From a phage: a stretch of DNA of 44,855 bases. Shown in pieces: positions 3,050 to 38,045 of this stretch; the stretch's first letter is position 1; every line of letters begins with the position of its first letter. The position numbers and the translations under genes were made by a program. The stretch lies in the NCBI GenBank assembly GCA_012164735.1, contig GCA_012164735.1_4544.1; one strand, 5' to 3'. The notes under the pieces are model-generated. The model was not told the origin of the DNA. It saw nothing but the letters and a program-made list of their open reading frames with translations, and ran no database searches.

Positions 3050-3251
3050 TTGCAAAATACACGGCAGCATGATGCGAAGTGCGGTCATGGATGAACTAGG
3101 CAACCAATGCGGGTTGTATTATGCTGAGTGAAAAATGCGGTTTGCAGTTGCAGCAGATAGCGATCAACTTTTTCATACGCATGATTAATATTGGTTGCAT
3201 TCAGCCTAGCACCCTGCTAGATTGGTTGCACACCAACATGAGGACTGAACA

Positions 3252-3836: not shown

Positions 3837-4177
3837 TTCGAGTAACCGCACGCCGCGAACAATCGGGGGCCACTTACGATGTAATCGACGTTCGCGGCGC
3901 GTTCGTCATCTTCGGACGGGGTGACGACCGGCTGGCGCTGCCGATCGGTATGCTGAGCACATACGACTATTTCAAGCATAACGTCCGGTGTGGCGATGTG
4001 CTGCGCGATAAGCGCACCGGTGAGCTATGGACGGTGGCGAGTATTTGGGTGAAAGATAAACGGCAGCACACGTTATTGCTCGCCCGCCCGGATTGCAAAC
4101 AGCAAACTATTAACACTATTGGCCTGGTGGACTACACCCGCGTAGGCCGTAACGCTACCTGGAGACTGAGAAAATGA
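3833..4177 (+). CDS. Hypothetical protein, tandem paralog family (GDVLRD ... LWTV ... VDYTRVGR motifs)
   Basis: 114-aa ORF; ATGA start/stop overlap with upstream gene; shares motifs with 4174-4746. Confidence 0.55.
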   Translation: MIRVTARREQSGATYDVIDVRGAFVIFGRGDDRLALPIGMLSTYDYFKHNVRCGDVLRDKRTGELWTVASIWVKDKRQHTLLLARPDCKQQTINTIGLVDYTRVGRNATWRLRK

Positions 4178-33940: not shown

Positions 33941-34161
33941 TTTAAGCTCTCAATAAGGGTCTGTCGGGCGCTTCGCGCAGTAACGGAGTTGCATACGAAA
34001 TGGCAACGCTGAGTCATGACAAGCCAACCGGTGAGGTCAAGGCCCATGATGCGTCCTGGACAAGACGCGCGCACCACATGATTGCGCCGCGGGTCAATGC
34101 CGTAGTCTTTTTGCATTTGGTTTACGACCGCCGGGTCGCGGTCAACGATTAAGATATTCAC
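33937..34161 (-). CDS. Small hypothetical protein (GTG start with strong RBS aaggag)
   Basis: 74-aa ORF overlapping upstream gene end. Confidence 0.35.
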   Translation of the reverse strand: MNILIVDRDPAVVNQMQKDYGIDPRRNHVVRASCPGRIMGLDLTGWLVMTQRCHFVCNSVTARSARQTLIESLK

Positions 34162-34627
34162 GCAATTCTCCTTCGCTCATTATTTCAATTTGTGCGCTGC
34201 CGATGGGCGGCGCTTCGTCAAATATTATTAATTGCTGGCACTTGTTATTGCTCGGCCCGACTTCACCGGTGACTGCATGTATGAATCGGATCCGCCAGTC
34301 CAGAAGAATTATCAGATTTGCAGTCTTCCGGGCCAGCTTCGCCCACTTCGTCGACGTGTCCTGATTCAGTAGCATGACGGTCCGACGGCCATGCGCTGCG
34401 CACTCAACCCACGGCAGCGGATCGGAATATGGCGGGTTGCACCATTTCCACCCTTTCAACTCGGACCAGTCAGCATCAAGCGCGCTGTGCTCCGCAGTGA
34501 AGTAACGCGGTAGCAGGTGGTTGGTGTCGCTTGCCGCCATATCGTAACGGAATCGGTATTTCCGGCGCAGTGGTTTAAATAAAGCTGGCGGCGTGCGCCA
34601 GCTATCTTTTTGCTCACTCTTCGTCAT
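34142..34627 (-). CDS. DNA N6-adenine methyltransferase (phage Dam-like); start uncertain (34627, 34645 or 34654)
   Basis: WCNPPYSD motif IV; W ... TPP near N-terminus. Confidence 0.7.
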   Translation of the reverse strand: MTKSEQKDSWRTPPALFKPLRRKYRFRYDMAASDTNHLLPRYFTAEHSALDADWSELKGWKWCNPPYSDPLPWVECAAHGRRTVMLLNQDTSTKWAKLARKTANLIILLDWRIRFIHAVTGEVGPSNNKCQQLIIFDEAPPIGSAQIEIMSEGELREYLNR

Positions 34628-35078
34628 TCTGCGGGTCCAGTGCATATAGGGCAATCTTTTCGTATTTGCCGACTATGCGATGCACGCGCTTTGCGTCCTC
34701 TTCACTACGTGGGCGCGCATCCGTGTAGTAGCTACCAGTTTGAGTATTGTGCCACGCCATAAGCACCAAATCTTTCCGGGCGATCGAAGACTGGCGGCCC
34801 TTCGGACGCACGTACTCCTCCGCACGTTTACAGTGCTCCCGCAACGCATCGGCAGTGATGCGGTTTAGTGCAACGCTGGTGGTGTATCCGGTGCGCTGCA
34901 TAATCCCCATCAGTTCGAAAAGCAGTTCGAAGCGCTCCTCTAACTCCATGCGGCGCTTTTCTTCCGTTTCATAGCTTGACAGGTAGGTATCTGCCAGCGC
35001 GCTGACGCGTTCTGCCTGTTCGCGGGCTTCGAGGCATTGCGCGGCCCAGTAGTTTTTCTCTTCTTGTAAAATTTTCAT
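34614..35078 (-). CDS. Hypothetical protein
   Basis: 154 aa, RBS ggaga. Confidence 0.45.
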   Translation of the reverse strand: MKILQEEKNYWAAQCLEAREQAERVSALADTYLSSYETEEKRRMELEERFELLFELMGIMQRTGYTTSVALNRITADALREHCKRAEEYVRPKGRQSSIARKDLVLMAWHNTQTGSYYTDARPRSEEDAKRVHRIVGKYEKIALYALDPQNDEE

Positions 35079-35098
35079 CGTGTTGTCTCCGGGTATTA

Positions 35099-35127
35099 AA
35101 AAGGGCGTCCAAACCGGACACCCTCAA
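35099..35127 (-). terminator. Minus-strand intrinsic terminator lying between paired motifs and the next start codon
   Basis: rc: gggtgtcc ggttt ggacgccc then TTTTTA. Confidence 0.45.
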
Positions 35128-35132
35128 TATAA

Positions 35133-35159
35133 TGCAACCAATATGACTATGCAACCAAT
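35133..35159. promoter_or_regulatory. Paired TGCAACCAAT motifs (35133-35142, 35150-35159); on the minus strand they give TTGCAT - 17 nt - TATATT
   Basis: Two perfect 10-mers; hexamers read by eye. Confidence 0.45.
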
Positions 35160-35477
35160 TTACGCATAAAAGTTAGGGTCGCGTGCAACGTCTACCAAAT
35201 ACAGATTGCTCATGCGGTTGCCGTAGTGTCCTGGAGTGCGCTGGCGGCACACAACGGCGAAGCCTGGGGGGATTGTATTACCCGTCTCAATAATCCACGC
35301 CACGCGTGCGCCAGACAGCGTCTTGCCGTTGTATTCGATACGTGTTCCACCATCGGCAGTGTTGATGTTGCCAATTTTGCAGCCGGTGGACTTCAGACGA
35401 ATGACGCCGGTTTTGCTGTCGTAGGAGAATAACTGGTTAGTCATTGCAACCGAAAAATCGATGGCTTCGAATGTCAT
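35160..35477 (-). CDS. HNH-like endonuclease-fold protein with non-consensus catalytic positions
   Basis: 105 aa; NGK ... RVAWIIETGNTIPPGF ... NRMSNL aligns by eye with HNH_3-type proteins but the expected His positions are replaced. Confidence 0.4.
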   Translation of the reverse strand: MTFEAIDFSVAMTNQLFSYDSKTGVIRLKSTGCKIGNINTADGGTRIEYNGKTLSGARVAWIIETGNTIPPGFAVVCRQRTPGHYGNRMSNLYLVDVARDPNFYA

Positions 35478-36184
35478 TTTAAATTTTCCTCATTGACCGC
35501 TATTGCAAAGCCGCGCGGAGTGAGCGACCGGATTAATTTGGTGCGGGCGGATTTACCACCGAGGCGACTATACTGCTTCGAGTACCCATTTTCAACGAAT
35601 ACAGGCTTTTTCTCTGGCATACGAAAGCCGTTGCCGGTCCATAAGCAGGTCCGCTTCGGATATGAATCGCGGGCGTTGATGTATTCCGGGAAGAGCGGGT
35701 GTACGTCATCCTCCGGCAGATAGCCCCCATACTCCCACGGGTCGAACGAGTAGTCTGGCTTGCGCCACTGGGTGGAAAGCACACTGCGCGGATTCTCAAT
35801 CATATATGGCACTTCGAAGAAGTCACCCAGGTAAGCTGCGATCTTCGCGGTGCGCACCGCCTTAAGCTGGAAGGCGGGGTCTTTAGCTCGCTTGCGCGGG
35901 AAAGCTGGTGCACCGCTCACTGCCAGATCCGTGCACGGAGGAAACGCATAGATGATATCTGGCGTACCGAAATCGCCATTCATCGCGCGGTCAACGAAGT
36001 CCAGATCGATAAACTCATTGCGATAGCGGATTCCGCGACCATAAATCCGGTAGTCAAGGTATGACCCGTGATCAGCTTCGGAGTAGTTAAAACAGTAGCA
36101 CTTATGCCCCATCTCGGCAGCACGCTCAATCATCAAGCCGCTGCCGTCAAACAGTGACCAGATTGTCATTTTAGCAATAGTCAT
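35474..36184 (-). CDS. DNA cytosine-5 methyltransferase (Dcm-like, compact)
   Basis: LFDGSG (motif I), PPC (motif IV), ENP/ENV-like (motif VI); ATGA overlaps on both sides. Confidence 0.7.
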   Translation of the reverse strand: MTIAKMTIWSLFDGSGLMIERAAEMGHKCYCFNYSEADHGSYLDYRIYGRGIRYRNEFIDLDFVDRAMNGDFGTPDIIYAFPPCTDLAVSGAPAFPRKRAKDPAFQLKAVRTAKIAAYLGDFFEVPYMIENPRSVLSTQWRKPDYSFDPWEYGGYLPEDDVHPLFPEYINARDSYPKRTCLWTGNGFRMPEKKPVFVENGYSKQYSRLGGKSARTKLIRSLTPRGFAIAVNEENLK

Positions 36185-37605
36185 TTGCGCGCCTTTTTAG
36201 CTTTCATGTATTCCATCAAGTCGTCCTGAATGTCTCGCTTACTGTCGCGACGCTCGGCGACCAATTCGTCCAGTGTCCCGCGAGCCTGGATAATGTAGAC
36301 GAATACTGGTCGAGGGTGTCCGGCCTGCATCTGGCGAACCGGCCCGATACGTTCAACGATCTGCGAAAAGTGCTCAAAGTTCCAGGTATCGGAGAAGATT
36401 GCCAGGTGATGCCCGCCGTCCTGCAAGTTAAGGCCGTGTCCCGCCGATGCCGGATGTGCAAACATGATGGGGATCTCGCCTCTGTTCCACGCTTCCATAT
36501 CCTTATTGCCCTGCTTACCTTTACCCAACGCAACTCCGTGCGGAAATTTCTTCTTAAGACGTGCCAGGTCATGCTTATACTGATACGCAACGAGCAACGG
36601 CGCGCCGTTCAACTCCTCCACGATACTTTCCAGCGCGTCCAGCTTCGCGTCGTGAATCTTCACCCACTCGTCGGTCCGTTCGCCGTCTTCGTCCACCTTA
36701 TACACAGCGCCGGAAGCAAGCTGAAGGCACTTAATTGTCTTCGATGCCGCGTTCGCCGCCTCCACTGTTCCGCTTTCCAGTTCGGCAAACAGCTCGCTTT
36801 CAAACTGGTCGTAAATCTTGCGGGCTTTCTTCGGCAGGTCCACAACAACCGGCGTATAGATTGGCTTGTCGCACCCGAAGTATTCAGCCGCGTCAACGGT
36901 TAGTGATACGTCAGACAGGCGTTGTTGTATTTCTTTCTCAGAGTTCTTTAGCGGAGCGTGCTGCATCGTGAAGCTGCCAGGCTTAACAGGCTTGCTAATG
37001 AACCAGCGATCGGTAAACGCCTTATAGCTACTGCCGAGGCGTTCGCCGCCGTCGACAAACCACGTCTGACCCCATAAGTCTTTCAAGCCATTTGGCGCGG
37101 GTGTGCCGGTCAGGTTAATCCAGCGCTTGACGTGCTTATGCGCAATCGCTGCCAGTGCGCGGGCGCGCTTACTCCCCTGCTTACTCCTGTAGCCTTTCAG
37201 CTTAGTCGATTCATCGGCAACAACGACCGTAAATGGCCACGCATCGCCGTAATAATCAACCAGCCACTCAACCACATCGTAGTTAACACAAACCACGTTA
37301 GCGTCGCTCTCCAGCGCGGCTATGCGGTCTTTTTCTGATCCTGTGCCGTCTACTACCAGCAGGGATGAGAACCGCCATTTCTCCTGCTCCGGGGGCCATG
37401 TACCGGACGCAACACGCAGCGGGGCCAGCACCAGTACGCGGTCCTCATGATGGGACAGGACGCCAGTCTGGAACATTTTATTCAGCGCCCACATTGTCGC
37501 GCCGGTTTTACCGGATCCCATTGTCGCCCATATATTACATCGCTTATGCTTGAGGATGAACGCGGTTATCAACTTCTGATATTCGCGGCGTCGGAATCTT
37601 GCCAT
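36181..37605 (-). CDS. Superfamily 2 helicase (start at ATG 37605)
   Basis: Walker A MGSGKTG, DExx VVADES. Confidence 0.7.
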   Translation of the reverse strand: MARFRRREYQKLITAFILKHKRCNIWATMGSGKTGATMWALNKMFQTGVLSHHEDRVLVLAPLRVASGTWPPEQEKWRFSSLLVVDGTGSEKDRIAALESDANVVCVNYDVVEWLVDYYGDAWPFTVVVADESTKLKGYRSKQGSKRARALAAIAHKHVKRWINLTGTPAPNGLKDLWGQTWFVDGGERLGSSYKAFTDRWFISKPVKPGSFTMQHAPLKNSEKEIQQRLSDVSLTVDAAEYFGCDKPIYTPVVVDLPKKARKIYDQFESELFAELESGTVEAANAASKTIKCLQLASGAVYKVDEDGERTDEWVKIHDAKLDALESIVEELNGAPLLVAYQYKHDLARLKKKFPHGVALGKGKQGNKDMEAWNRGEIPIMFAHPASAGHGLNLQDGGHHLAIFSDTWNFEHFSQIVERIGPVRQMQAGHPRPVFVYIIQARGTLDELVAERRDSKRDIQDDLMEYMKAKKARK

Positions 37606-37609
37606 GTCT

Positions 37610-37834
37610 TTATTCCGCCTTTTTCCAGACTTCAGTTTCACTATCCCAGTTCCTCTTTGTGGCGTCGTAGTTGGTGGCGTGCCCGACGTGGACACCGGTA
37701 GCCCGGAAGCTCTTAAATTTTTGCCAACACACCGTCAACGGCAGCGGATCATTCATGCCTGCGATAAACCATACGCGATCGCCTGGTTTGCATTCGCCCA
37801 GCTTGGTGAGTCGGTAATGTTCTTTCATCGTCAT
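37610..37834 (-). CDS. Small hypothetical protein (start at ATG 37834)
   Basis: RBS gggag; ORF-track N-terminal extension rejected. Confidence 0.35.
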   Translation of the reverse strand: MTMKEHYRLTKLGECKPGDRVWFIAGMNDPLPLTVCWQKFKSFRATGVHVGHATNYDATKRNWDSETEVWKKAE

Positions 37835-37871: not shown

Positions 37872-38045
37872 TTATTCTTGTTCTGCACGATAGCGGCGCT
37901 GCCGTTCGCGCTCTTTTTTATTGCGGCACGATTTGCACTCGGCCCGATGCCCGTCCGGGCTGCGCGCAGTCTTACCGGTGTATTTGTGGAACTGGGACAG
38001 CGGCTTGATGCAGCCGCAATTACTACAACGTTTTTCTTCAATCAT
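37872..38045 (-). CDS. Zinc-ribbon protein (57 aa; CxxC ... CxxC), start at ATG 38045
   Basis: CSNCGC ... CKSC; RBS gagga. Confidence 0.45.
   Translation of the reverse strand: MIEEKRCSNCGCIKPLSQFHKYTGKTARSPDGHRAECKSCRNKKERERQRRYRAEQE

Follow-up and report, generated by a model that had tools for sequence, protein, structure and literature searches.

A catalytically disabled HNH-fold protein in the conserved replication and modification gene row of a Dhillonvirus genome

Introduction

Helicase, methyltransferase, and HNH-like genes stand close together at this phage locus, which raises the question of whether they form one coupled unit, what the two methyltransferases do to the phage DNA, and whether the HNH-like protein between them is a nuclease, a partner of its neighbors, or a relic. 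The window (the whole stretch of DNA that was analyzed, 44,855 nt) is the genome of a Dhillonvirus, an HK578-like coliphage, in which the block is the conserved row of genes for replication and modification. At the nucleotide level, the region is 92 to 93% identical to the Escherichia phages Zumzum, ZCEC10-12, and Oekolampad, and 150 GenBank records span at least 80% of it with the same annotation. In annotated Dhillonvirus genomes (Oekolampad Bas18, MZ501095; Zumzum, PP925847; HK578-like phages), the genes, their order, and their overlaps are identical, and the proteins are 91 to 99% identical. These records carry the labels DNA helicase, Dcm-like C5 cytosine methyltransferase, putative homing endonuclease, and Dam-like N6-adenine methyltransferase. 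Because more than 150 phage genomes already annotate it in this way, the block is ordinary: a helicase, a miniature Dcm, a dead HNH protein, and a Dam are already known as the standard arrangement for Dhillonvirus. The gene identities, the folds, the loss of motifs, and the synteny are directly supported.

Organization of the locus

The features of the locus are as follows.

36181..37605, minus strand: SNF2-family DNA helicase, with the ATG start annotated in relatives (Pfam SNF2-rel_dom, PHROG 62)
36181..36184, minus strand: ATGA overlap of helicase stop and Dcm-like start, read directly and conserved in related loci
35474..36184, minus strand: miniature Dcm-like C5-cytosine DNA methyltransferase, 236 aa (PHROG 757, fold, motifs)
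35474..35477, minus strand: ATGA overlap of Dcm-like stop and HNH-like start, read directly and kept in dcm-bearing relatives
35160..35477, minus strand: 105-aa I-HmuI-like HNH-fold protein, catalytically disabled and shortened at the C terminus (PHROG 99, AF2/Foldseek, alignment)
35079..35159, minus strand: intergenic regulatory gap of 81 nt with a TTGGTTGCA doublet and a hairpin
34614..35078, minus strand: gene for a 154-aa protein, labeled "DNA ligase" through PHROG 10530 (E 2e-85) and in some GenBank records
34142..34627, minus strand: phage Dam-family N6-adenine DNA methyltransferase, 161 aa (ATG of relatives, PF05869)

The helicase, Dcm-like, HNH-like, and Dam-family genes were all read on the minus strand from the sequence and the open reading frame list. 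The helicase matched Pfam SNF2-rel_dom (E 6.6e-11) and PHROG 62 "DNA helicase" (E 1e-156), its reading frame is open as far as a GTG at 37695, and its dN/dS against 17 relatives was 0.02. At both predicted junctions, helicase/Dcm-like and Dcm-like/HNH-like, the sequence reads exactly ATGA. Both overlaps recurred in all the related loci that were compared, even where protein identity was only 56 to 71%; at the helicase/Dcm-like junction, one relative (L017) has GTGA instead of ATGA. A second possible Dcm start (MTIWSLFDGSG) lies 15 nt downstream of the first, and in many relatives, which do not have those 15 nt, the helicase stop overlaps this start directly. The SNF2 helicase, the miniature Dcm, and the HNH-fold protein would be translated from one message through these overlaps. 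The ATGA overlap is not peculiar to these three genes, since it occurs at no fewer than eight further long-ORF junctions in the window (e.g., 4174, 23608, 25136, 25744, 33937, and 38361), and such packing is the style of the entire genome.

The original prediction had drawn the coupled block through to the Dam-like gene. The two ATGA couplings bear it out as far as the HNH-like gene, and the Dam-like gene does lie downstream, but not adjacent. Because the gap and the 154-aa gene intervene, the four named genes do not form one uninterrupted coupled unit.

The two methyltransferases

The Dcm-like protein matched PHROG 757 (E 4e-84) and had no Pfam (including PF00145) or NCBIfam match. Profile-to-PDB sequence searches were not significant (M.HaeIII, E 0.94). 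Its motifs comprise motif I (F12-G14-G16), the catalytic P83-C84, and E130-N131-P132, and the FxGxG, Pro-Cys, and ENx motifs were invariant in an alignment of 30 sequences. The AF2 model (pLDDT 90) gave DNMT3A/3B as its best Foldseek matches (E 1.5e-7), and the top 50 matches were eukaryotic DNMTs throughout (DNMT3A/3B/3C, DNMT1, and plant MET1). Judged from the model and the motifs, the protein has a predicted C5-methyltransferase fold and the catalytic motifs despite the Pfam miss. The family holds 2,934 homologs, nearly all of 210 to 260 aa. In the miniature Dcm, only about 55 residues take the place of the full target-recognition domain of other C5 methylases. The 236-aa protein would be a C5-cytosine methyltransferase that stands alone and whose target-recognition segment is very small, DNMT3-like in that respect.

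A characterized homolog, the Dcm of phage K42, suggests the likely target. Expressed alone, it methylates msDNA at its CCWGG site, giving 5mC, and it triggers retron Ec86/Eco1; dcm is dispensable for K42, whose escape mutants delete the gene, and of the 35 Ec86-sensitive phages, which come from three families, 34 carry this Dcm (bioRxiv 10.1101/2023.08.16.553469). K42 is a strain near-identical or closely related to KarlJaspers (Bas06), whose Dcm is 54% identical to the window protein over the full length (both 236 aa, 711 bp). Residues named for K42 Dcm (C82, E128, K175, and K176 in KarlJaspers) align with C84, E130, K177, and R178 of the window Dcm, so that the catalytic Cys, Glu, and Lys occupy matching positions, and the two proteins have a common DNMT3A-like predicted fold. 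The genomic context differs, as the KarlJaspers dcm lies among small hypothetical genes, uncoupled from a helicase and with no HNH-fold neighbor.

By analogy with K42, the window Dcm most likely writes 5mC at CCWGG, although the specificity could differ because the identity to KarlJaspers Dcm is 54%. The enzyme might instead act on another target or substrate or transfer another group, like some C5-MTase-like enzymes; the missing Pfam match, the modest identity to the characterized homolog, and the very small recognition segment would fit this. However, the catalytic Cys, ENx, and SAM-binding motifs are invariant, and the segment from motif VIII to the C-terminal motifs is better conserved with KarlJaspers, at about 68% identity by alignment count versus 54% for the rest. 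The presence of this Dcm in nearly all Ec86-sensitive phages also speaks for CCWGG, and a different activity is considered unlikely.

The gap downstream of the HNH-like gene holds TTGGTTGCA copies at 35150-35158 and 35133-35141, followed by a hairpin (GGGTGTCC-GGTTT-GGACGCCC, then TTTTT; 35123-35098) with a 10-bp stem in both the MFE and the centroid folds. The predicted hairpin with its five T is shaped like an intrinsic terminator; it was not among the hits of a consensus terminator scan. The doublet after the HNH-like stop is kept in most related loci, and four (L004, L005, L007, and L019) have a single exact copy there. Some annotated Dhillonvirus genomes have an extra 243-nt ORF in this gap. 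The 154-aa protein that follows had no Pfam or NCBIfam match, and the KxDG motif is missing from its translation. Its gene has a dN/dS of 0.22 and is absent from L005 and L019.

The mechanical ORF of the Dam gene begins at a TTG at 34654; with the start used here, the gene shares 14 nt with the end of the 154-aa gene. The protein, assigned to PHROG 111, matched Pfam PF05869 strongly (E 1.4e-36; 126 bits versus a cut-off of 28.1) and scored 87.6 bits for TIGR01712, below the NCBIfam equivalog cut-off of 97. NPPY and D-x-A-A motifs are present in the translation. It resembles the phage Dam family of the T1 and VT-2 type in this match, in the NPPY catalytic motif, and in being a small single-domain orphan enzyme. 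The Dam enzymes of T1 and VT-2 target GATC, and by analogy the window Dam probably does so as well. The window holds 149 CCWGG and 163 GATC sites, and neither is avoided. The PF05869 match and the C5-methyltransferase fold and motifs support the proposal that the phage has two methyltransferase genes of differing chemistry without a cognate nuclease.

The HNH-fold protein

The 105-aa protein matched PHROG 99 "HNH endonuclease" (E 1.4e-15) and had no Pfam match. The only PDB match of its AF2 model (pLDDT 86) was I-HmuI (1u3e), the HNH homing endonuclease of Bacillus phage SPO1, with a probability of 0.99 and a TM of 0.53 over 92 columns; a further 59 matches were viral proteins of HNH type. An hhalign comparison against I-HmuI alone was not significant. 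The N-terminal beta-sheet, the next helix, and the two nuclease-finger strands of I-HmuI match the protein, and its structural Asn and "NL" motif are retained.

The active site was compared with those of I-HmuI and three HNH_3 enzymes confirmed by Pfam, with residues mapped by MAFFT alignment and secondary-structure register and not by residue-level structural superposition. In this alignment, D74-H75 of I-HmuI correspond to V76-C77 (Thr-Leu or Arg-Cys in relatives), and the helix bearing N96 is missing, as is the entire C-terminal helical/HTH DNA-binding half. The suggestion that this HNH-like protein is without the usual catalytic His residues is therefore upheld: the fold is real, and the Asp-His general base is gone. 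The GenBank records, which name the protein HNH or homing endonuclease, do not mention the loss. The loop joining the two strands holds an invariant His (H84), so that an unconventional active site is conceivable. The protein probably descended from a homing endonuclease of the I-HmuI/HNH_3 type, of which it keeps the DNA-binding beta-sheet part at the N terminus and both nuclease-finger strands but neither the general base nor the metal-binding helix.

Purifying selection on the gene is directly supported and matches that on the methylases in strength, with a dN/dS of about 0.05 over dS 0.2 to 2 (dcm, 0.04; dam, 0.07). The gene was found in 162 of about 163 related phage records at a fixed position, versus only 155 records with Dcm at 90% identity or more. 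Where dcm has been lost (L010, L026, and Teewinot, which keeps just the final 56 codons), the HNH-like gene stays beside the helicase. Conservation of the family extends to members only 40% identical and spans two phage genera; 25 residues are invariant. The more distant member, gp31 of Edwardsiella phages eiAU and eiAU-183 (Eiauvirus), is 40% identical and shows the same active-site loss. In eiAU-183, gp31 directly follows the orthologous SNF2 helicase, whose stop codon overlaps the start of the 181-aa form of gp31 as ATGA. At 151 to 181 aa, gp31 is longer than the window protein, with an N-terminal extension weakly like the NUMOD-like domain of I-HmuI. Downstream come a C5 methylase and a Dam methylase; this C5 methylase is a canonical 330-aa PF00145 protein with no detectable similarity to the miniature Dcm, and it comes after gp31, whereas the window Dcm-like gene comes before the HNH-like gene. 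The eiAU genome is likewise enriched for TTGGTTGCA.

The proposed DNA-binding partner could be an accessory subunit that supplies DNA targeting to the miniature Dcm, like the second subunit of split M.AquI or a DNMT3L-type helper. This would explain the translational coupling of the two genes, whose ATGA is conserved in all dcm-bearing relatives with a junction that was read, and it would suit an enzyme with so reduced a recognition domain; the eiAU homolog also adjoins a C5 methylase, though of another type. However, K42 Dcm methylates CCWGG when expressed alone, KarlJaspers and more than 1,300 other phage records have the miniature Dcm without a 105-aa homolog, and the 105-aa gene is kept under selection in the three dcm-less relatives. 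A partnership with Dcm is therefore quite improbable.

The other earlier suggestion, a decayed homing endonuclease, is not supported if it means a selfish or decaying remnant without function for the phage. The protein has 105 aa versus 155 to 178 aa in active relatives and 174 aa in I-HmuI, its catalytic residues are gone, GenBank records call it a homing endonuclease, and SSL-2009a seems to have a frameshifted copy. Genes for homing endonucleases typically occur sporadically. In contrast, this gene is almost universally present, occupies a fixed position with no intron or mobile context, is held by strong purifying selection, and is conserved across two genera, which makes a functionless remnant very improbable. 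The adjoining methylase and HNH-fold genes might also recall a small restriction-modification or exclusion cassette, in which the methylase would protect against an HNH-type nuclease, as restriction enzymes of the HNH type exist, but the general base and metal-ligand helix are missing, the phage has many unprotected-type sites for other enzymes, and the nuclease-like gene persists in several phages without the methylase, which would be lethal for a true restriction-modification pair, so that this reading is extremely improbable.

Given its dN/dS, its near-universal presence, its retention without dcm, and its coupling to the helicase in eiAU, the 105-aa protein looks like a domesticated protein that is independent of Dcm.

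Implications for Dhillonvirus

It is reasonable to infer that both methylases may serve anti-restriction. Methylation of CCWGG would shield phage DNA from CCWGG-type restriction in hosts without Dcm. In the BASEL collection, however, no simple link was found between methylase genes and restriction resistance in related Drexlerviridae, and Dhillonvirus was placed among the less restriction-resistant small siphoviruses (PMC8594841). Methylation would also carry a cost, as the K42 homolog triggers retron Eco1, and the deletion of dcm in some relatives may reflect this cost.

Taken as a whole, we consider it likely that the locus is a conserved gene row with a miniature Dcm, probably specific for CCWGG, a Dam, and a domesticated non-cleaving HNH protein. 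The only part of the block that is out of the ordinary is the dead HNH protein, best read as a domesticated, non-cleaving, and putatively DNA-binding protein that has the helicase as its conserved partner in gene order.

Organization of the gene block and its relatives

All genes of the block are read from the minus strand. They are listed below in the direction of that strand.

Genes and gap of the block (positions in the window)
36181-37605, minus strand, SNF2-family helicase (start at the ATG that relatives annotate)
35474-36184, minus strand, Dcm-like protein, 236 aa
35160-35477, minus strand, HNH-like protein, 105 aa
35079-35159, minus strand, intergenic gap, 81 nt
34614-35078, minus strand, 154-aa gene
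34142-34627, minus strand, Dam-family gene

The ATGA overlaps between helicase and dcm and between dcm and the HNH-like gene were both found at exactly the positions of the original prediction, and they are kept in relatives. The genes that it named were also present in the order proposed, but the 154-aa gene and the 81-nt gap, which separate the HNH-like gene from the Dam gene, were missing from its account. At least 8 other pairs of long open reading frames (ORFs) in the window share ATGA junctions. Such junctions are therefore a genome-wide habit, and the overlaps, real and conserved as they are, do not mark a special block. Beyond the Dam gene lie a 74-aa gene and then a gene for a HAD-type phosphatase or polynucleotide-kinase-like protein.

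The gene region is 91 to 93% identical at the nucleotide level to that of the Escherichia phages Zumzum, ZCEC10-12, Gluttony, mckay, Oekolampad (BASEL collection, Bas18), and many others. The region was matched by 163 phage records, 150 of which covered at least 80% of it. These relatives are Dhillonvirus (HK578-like) siphoviruses, a genus in which 44.9 kb, the length of the window, is the size of a complete genome. The genes are annotated in the relatives as DNA helicase, Dcm-like C5 cytosine methyltransferase, putative homing or HNH endonuclease, and Dam-like N6-adenine methyltransferase; the block is thus already known from more than 150 public genomes. Near-identical Dhillonvirus genes are also deposited under the names of phages of unrelated hosts, namely, MG065648.1 ("Campylobacter phage A144," HNH-like protein 94% identical) and OQ221563.1 ("Acinetobacter phage NJ01," which scores like other Dhillonvirus records), and OR786094.1 ("Streptococcus phage MBBL140") holds a coliphage-type mini-Dcm with 57% identity. 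Host mislabeling or contamination seems likely in these records.

Several details of the neighboring genes were also recorded. Before its annotated ATG, the helicase frame has no stop over 30 codons, as far as a GTG at 37695 (37606-37695, minus strand). These codons overlap the last part of the 74-aa gene that precedes the helicase (37610-37834), and all relatives annotate the ATG equivalent to 37605. Farther upstream, a 57-aa zinc-ribbon protein (37872-38045, minus strand) has matches to PHROG 5558, "Lar-like restriction alleviation protein" (E = 3e-16), as well as to endonuclease VII/HNH-type zinc-finger families; should it be Lar-like as labeled, this could be a further antirestriction gene of the same row. 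The 154-aa gene is labeled "DNA ligase" in PHROG 10530 and in several GenBank records. This label was rejected, as the product had no match in Pfam or NCBIfam and no KxDG motif, and it looks like annotation drift. The gene evolves faster than its neighbors (dN/dS of 0.22) and is missing from two related loci (L005 and L019).

Two putative orphan methylases

The Dcm-like protein did not match PF00145 in Pfam even at an E value of 0.1, and neither NCBIfam nor PDB sequences gave a match; when its profile was compared with the PDB, the best hit was M.HaeIII at an E value of 0.94. Since the HNH-like protein likewise had no significant match in these three databases, both proteins were identified through PHROGs, structure prediction, and fold search. 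The mini-Dcm family is large, with 2,934 matches at 90% clustering, 1,975 representatives at 50%, and 1,484 phage records, and nearly all members are 210 to 260 aa long. Among the 120 homologues listed, only 3 carry a precomputed PF00145 match.

The AlphaFold (AF2) model of the Dcm-like protein (pLDDT of 90, pTM of 0.89) has the fold of a C5 methyltransferase, with 85 PDB matches at E values of ≤0.001. The best 50 of these are the eukaryotic enzymes DNMT3A/3B/3C and DNMT1 and plant MET1, headed by DNMT3A/DNMT3B at 1e-7. In an alignment of 30 homologues, F12-D-G14-S-G16 (the SAM-binding motif I, FxGxG), P83-C84 (motif IV), and E130-N131-P132 (motif VI) were invariant. Classical bacterial C5 methylases have at least 320 aa; DNMT3-type enzymes have a short target-recognition domain. 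In the 236-aa Dcm-like protein, about 55 well-conserved residues (approximately 145 to 200) occupy the target-recognition position between motifs VIII and IX.

Over its full length, the Dcm-like protein is 54% identical to the 236-aa Dcm of KarlJaspers (Bas06), a phage nearly identical to K42. As reported previously, K42 Dcm alone places 5mC on the CCWGG site of the msDNA of retron Ec86, as measured by LC-MS; this modification activates the retron, and phages that escape it delete or silence dcm (10.1101/2023.08.16.553469). The active-site residues named in that study (C82, E128, K175, and K176) align with C84, E130, K177, and R178 of the window protein, and the invariant motifs coincide with residues mutated in K42 Dcm. 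By a hand count on the alignment, the segment that stands in for the target-recognition domain is about 68% identical to KarlJaspers Dcm, compared with 54% for the rest. This better conservation favors CCWGG, which is the most likely predicted target of the Dcm-like protein.

The Dam-like protein matched PF05869 at 126.1 bits (cutoff, 28.1) and carries the catalytic (D/N)PPY motif within "WCNPPYSD." Its score against TIGR01712, 87.6 bits, lies under the equivalog cutoff of 97.05; by these profile scores, it is a member of the phage Dam family that does not reach equivalog status. Its target is presumably GATC, as for the Dam enzymes of phages T1 and VT-2. The C5 motifs and fold, together with the PF05869 match, bear out the original prediction of two orphan methylases. 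The window contains 149 CCWGG sites and 163 GATC sites, and neither is avoided.

An HNH fold without the conventional active site

The HNH-like protein had no Pfam match, and the best E value for HNH_3 (PF13392) among 12 family members was 0.11. It does match PHROG 99, "HNH endonuclease" (E = 1.4e-15). Members of its narrow family come from Dhillonvirus and close metagenomic relatives, with identities as low as 52%, and from the Edwardsiella eiAU phages, whose gp31 is 40% identical. When its AlphaFold model (pLDDT of 86) was searched against solved structures, the sole match was the homing endonuclease I-HmuI (PDB 1u3e), with a probability of 0.99 over 92 columns and a TM score of 0.53. Among predicted viral proteins, 59 of the HNH, homing-endonuclease, or AP2 type were matched at E values of ≤0.001, with TM scores of 0.6 to 0.7.

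For the active site, the confirmed chain sequence of I-HmuI, three phage enzymes that pass Pfam HNH_3, and the HNH-like family were aligned with MAFFT. The N-terminal sheet, the next helix, the two nuclease-finger strands, the structural Asn, and the "NL" motif all aligned with I-HmuI. A separate hhalign comparison between the family and I-HmuI as a lone sequence did not reach significance (E = 0.24); its N-terminal register agreed with that of the MAFFT alignment. At the general-base site, D74-H75 of I-HmuI, which is "DH" in the three HNH_3 enzymes, is replaced by V76-C77 in the window protein and by T-L or R-C in its relatives; the position is not conserved. The column of the metal ligand N96, which lies on a helix in I-HmuI, is a gap. 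The HNH-like protein ends 9 residues past the second strand (E92-96), and the AF2 model has no helix there. The metal-ligand helix and the whole C-terminal DNA-binding half are therefore missing.

The degenerate catalytic site proposed originally was thus confirmed, with Asp-His replaced and the N96 column empty. As judged from this alignment, the HNH-like protein cannot be a conventional nuclease, and the database label of HNH or homing endonuclease is wrong for the 105-aa protein. The loop that joins the two strands contains an invariant His (H84), which leaves a formal possibility of an unconventional activity.

Conservation of the HNH-like gene with and without dcm

The original prediction offered two roles for the degenerate protein, a non-cleaving DNA-binding partner or a decayed homing endonuclease. 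Partnership with the methylase was not supported, given the loci in which the HNH-like gene is kept without dcm and the activity of K42 Dcm alone. In L010 (IMGVR_UViG_2597490041_000001, 3990-4005), dcm is cleanly deleted with the stop/start geometry preserved, the helicase frame ending in TAA one base before the HNH-like ATG. In Teewinot (NC_073053.1, 25725-25892), only the last 56 codons of dcm are left. A more distant metagenomic relative, L026 (Logan SRR33991138), has the helicase, the HNH-like gene, a 156-aa gene, and Dam with no dcm, while its sister L027 has dcm. In the Edwardsiella phage eiAU-183, the HNH-like homologue, gp31, directly follows the orthologous helicase, and the start of its longer form (181 aa) and the helicase stop overlap as ATGA. 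Next come a canonical PF00145 methylase of 330 aa, unrelated to the mini-Dcm, and then Dam. Conversely, more than 1,300 other phage records have a mini-Dcm without the HNH-like protein. Retention of the HNH-like gene without dcm, together with the frequency of mini-Dcm without the HNH-like protein, indicates that its positional partner is the helicase, not the methylase.

When the mini-Dcm was compared with the C5 methylase of eiAU (330 aa), no similarity was detectable, and kinship of the two was rejected. On this comparison, the two phage genera carry unrelated putative cytosine methylases at this locus.

Decay was at odds with the selection on the gene. Against 17 relatives, the HNH-like gene had a dN/dS of 0.05 (dS of 0.17 to 2.0); for comparison, the helicase had 0.02, dcm 0.04, dam 0.07, and two small neighboring genes 0.22 to 0.30. 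It occupies the same position in 162 phage records and in all 17 IMG/VR relatives, whereas Dcm at ≥90% identity is found in only 155 phage records. The low dN/dS and the 162 records also argue against a mobile homing endonuclease gene, as its presence is not sporadic. A type II restriction-modification pair was dismissed, given the absent active site of the HNH-like protein and the occurrence of its gene without a methylase.

In SSL-2009a (NC_012223; L018, 4001-4308), the HNH-like match falls into two overlapping pieces in different frames, and past residue 70 the annotated protein diverges. Either a frameshift or a sequencing error lies behind this, the sole such case seen.

Taken together, the HNH-like protein probably arose by domestication of an I-HmuI-type endonuclease, no longer cleaves, and would have kept DNA binding.

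The downstream gap and a repeated 9-mer

The gap that follows the HNH-like gene (35079-35159) contains two copies of ATTGGTTGCAT and then a 10-bp G+C-rich hairpin that runs into TTTTT (35098-35123, minus strand). The hairpin and its five T residues are shaped like an intrinsic terminator, which, lying before the 154-aa gene, would divide the block between two transcription units. A scan for consensus promoters and terminators did not report the hairpin and found no promoter within 35079-35159. The hairpin is visible only in the fold, and the stability of the 87-nt segment as a whole is unremarkable (z = -1.0). The gap is also an indel hot spot. It is 81 nt long in the window and in about half of the relatives and about 323 nt long in the others (L001, 3574-3897; L007, L009, L012, and L016 to L018), where it holds an extra annotated hypothetical ORF of 243 nt (bas18_0034 in Oekolampad).

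With 13 occurrences in the window and 0.44 expected, the core 9-mer, TTGGTTGCA, is overrepresented approximately 30-fold. The copies start at 3191, 3222, 3754, 6441, 6464, 14353, 14366, 30462, 33460, 33473, 35133, 35150, and 44824; most are intergenic and arranged as direct doublets or a palindrome. Most of the relatives examined retain the doublet past the HNH-like stop; L004, L005, L007, and L019 have a single exact copy at that place. In eiAU-183, the 9-mer occurs 14 times against 0.41 expected, and in the 50 kb of KarlJaspers (Drexlerviridae) there are just 2 copies. This distribution makes TTGGTTGCA a candidate operator or promoter element conserved in two phage genera. A scan of IMG/VR for the doublet gave more than 120 matches among those listed, in unrelated viruses that include giant viruses.

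The eiAU lineage, where the 9-mer is also enriched, is the only other one found with the HNH-like protein. A homing endonuclease turned sequence-specific DNA-binding regulator, for example, of transcription or replication, with TTGGTTGCA as its possible target, is an attractive but, in our view, improbable reading. Plant AP2 transcription factors have been proposed to originate from HNH endonucleases; an HNH-like regulator of this kind would be a phage parallel to that proposed origin.

Implications of probable self-methylation and nuclease domestication

Protection against restriction is the standard and a reasonable reading of the purpose of phage methylation. Phenotypic data do not clearly back it: in the BASEL study, methylase genes had no simple relation to restriction resistance in related Drexlerviridae, and Dhillonvirus was less resistant than the deazaguanine-modified Queuovirinae (PMC8594841). 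Dcm is also costly, as it triggers retron Eco1 (10.1101/2023.08.16.553469). This cost fits the sporadic natural deletions of dcm, which may reflect selection by Dcm-sensing defenses such as retron Eco1.

The phage probably methylates its own DNA at CCWGG and GATC-type sites, and its Dcm would confer the sensitivity to retron Eco1 that may explain the natural deletions. Both properties would be useful for picking phages or hosts. Little of this is new for the methylases, as an enzyme closely related to KarlJaspers Dcm, itself 54% identical to the window protein, is already characterized. The only question of some interest concerns the role of the dead-HNH protein and the TTGGTTGCA motif. The HNH-like protein offers a clean example of a domesticated nuclease fold, and its gene is among the best-conserved small genes of the genus.
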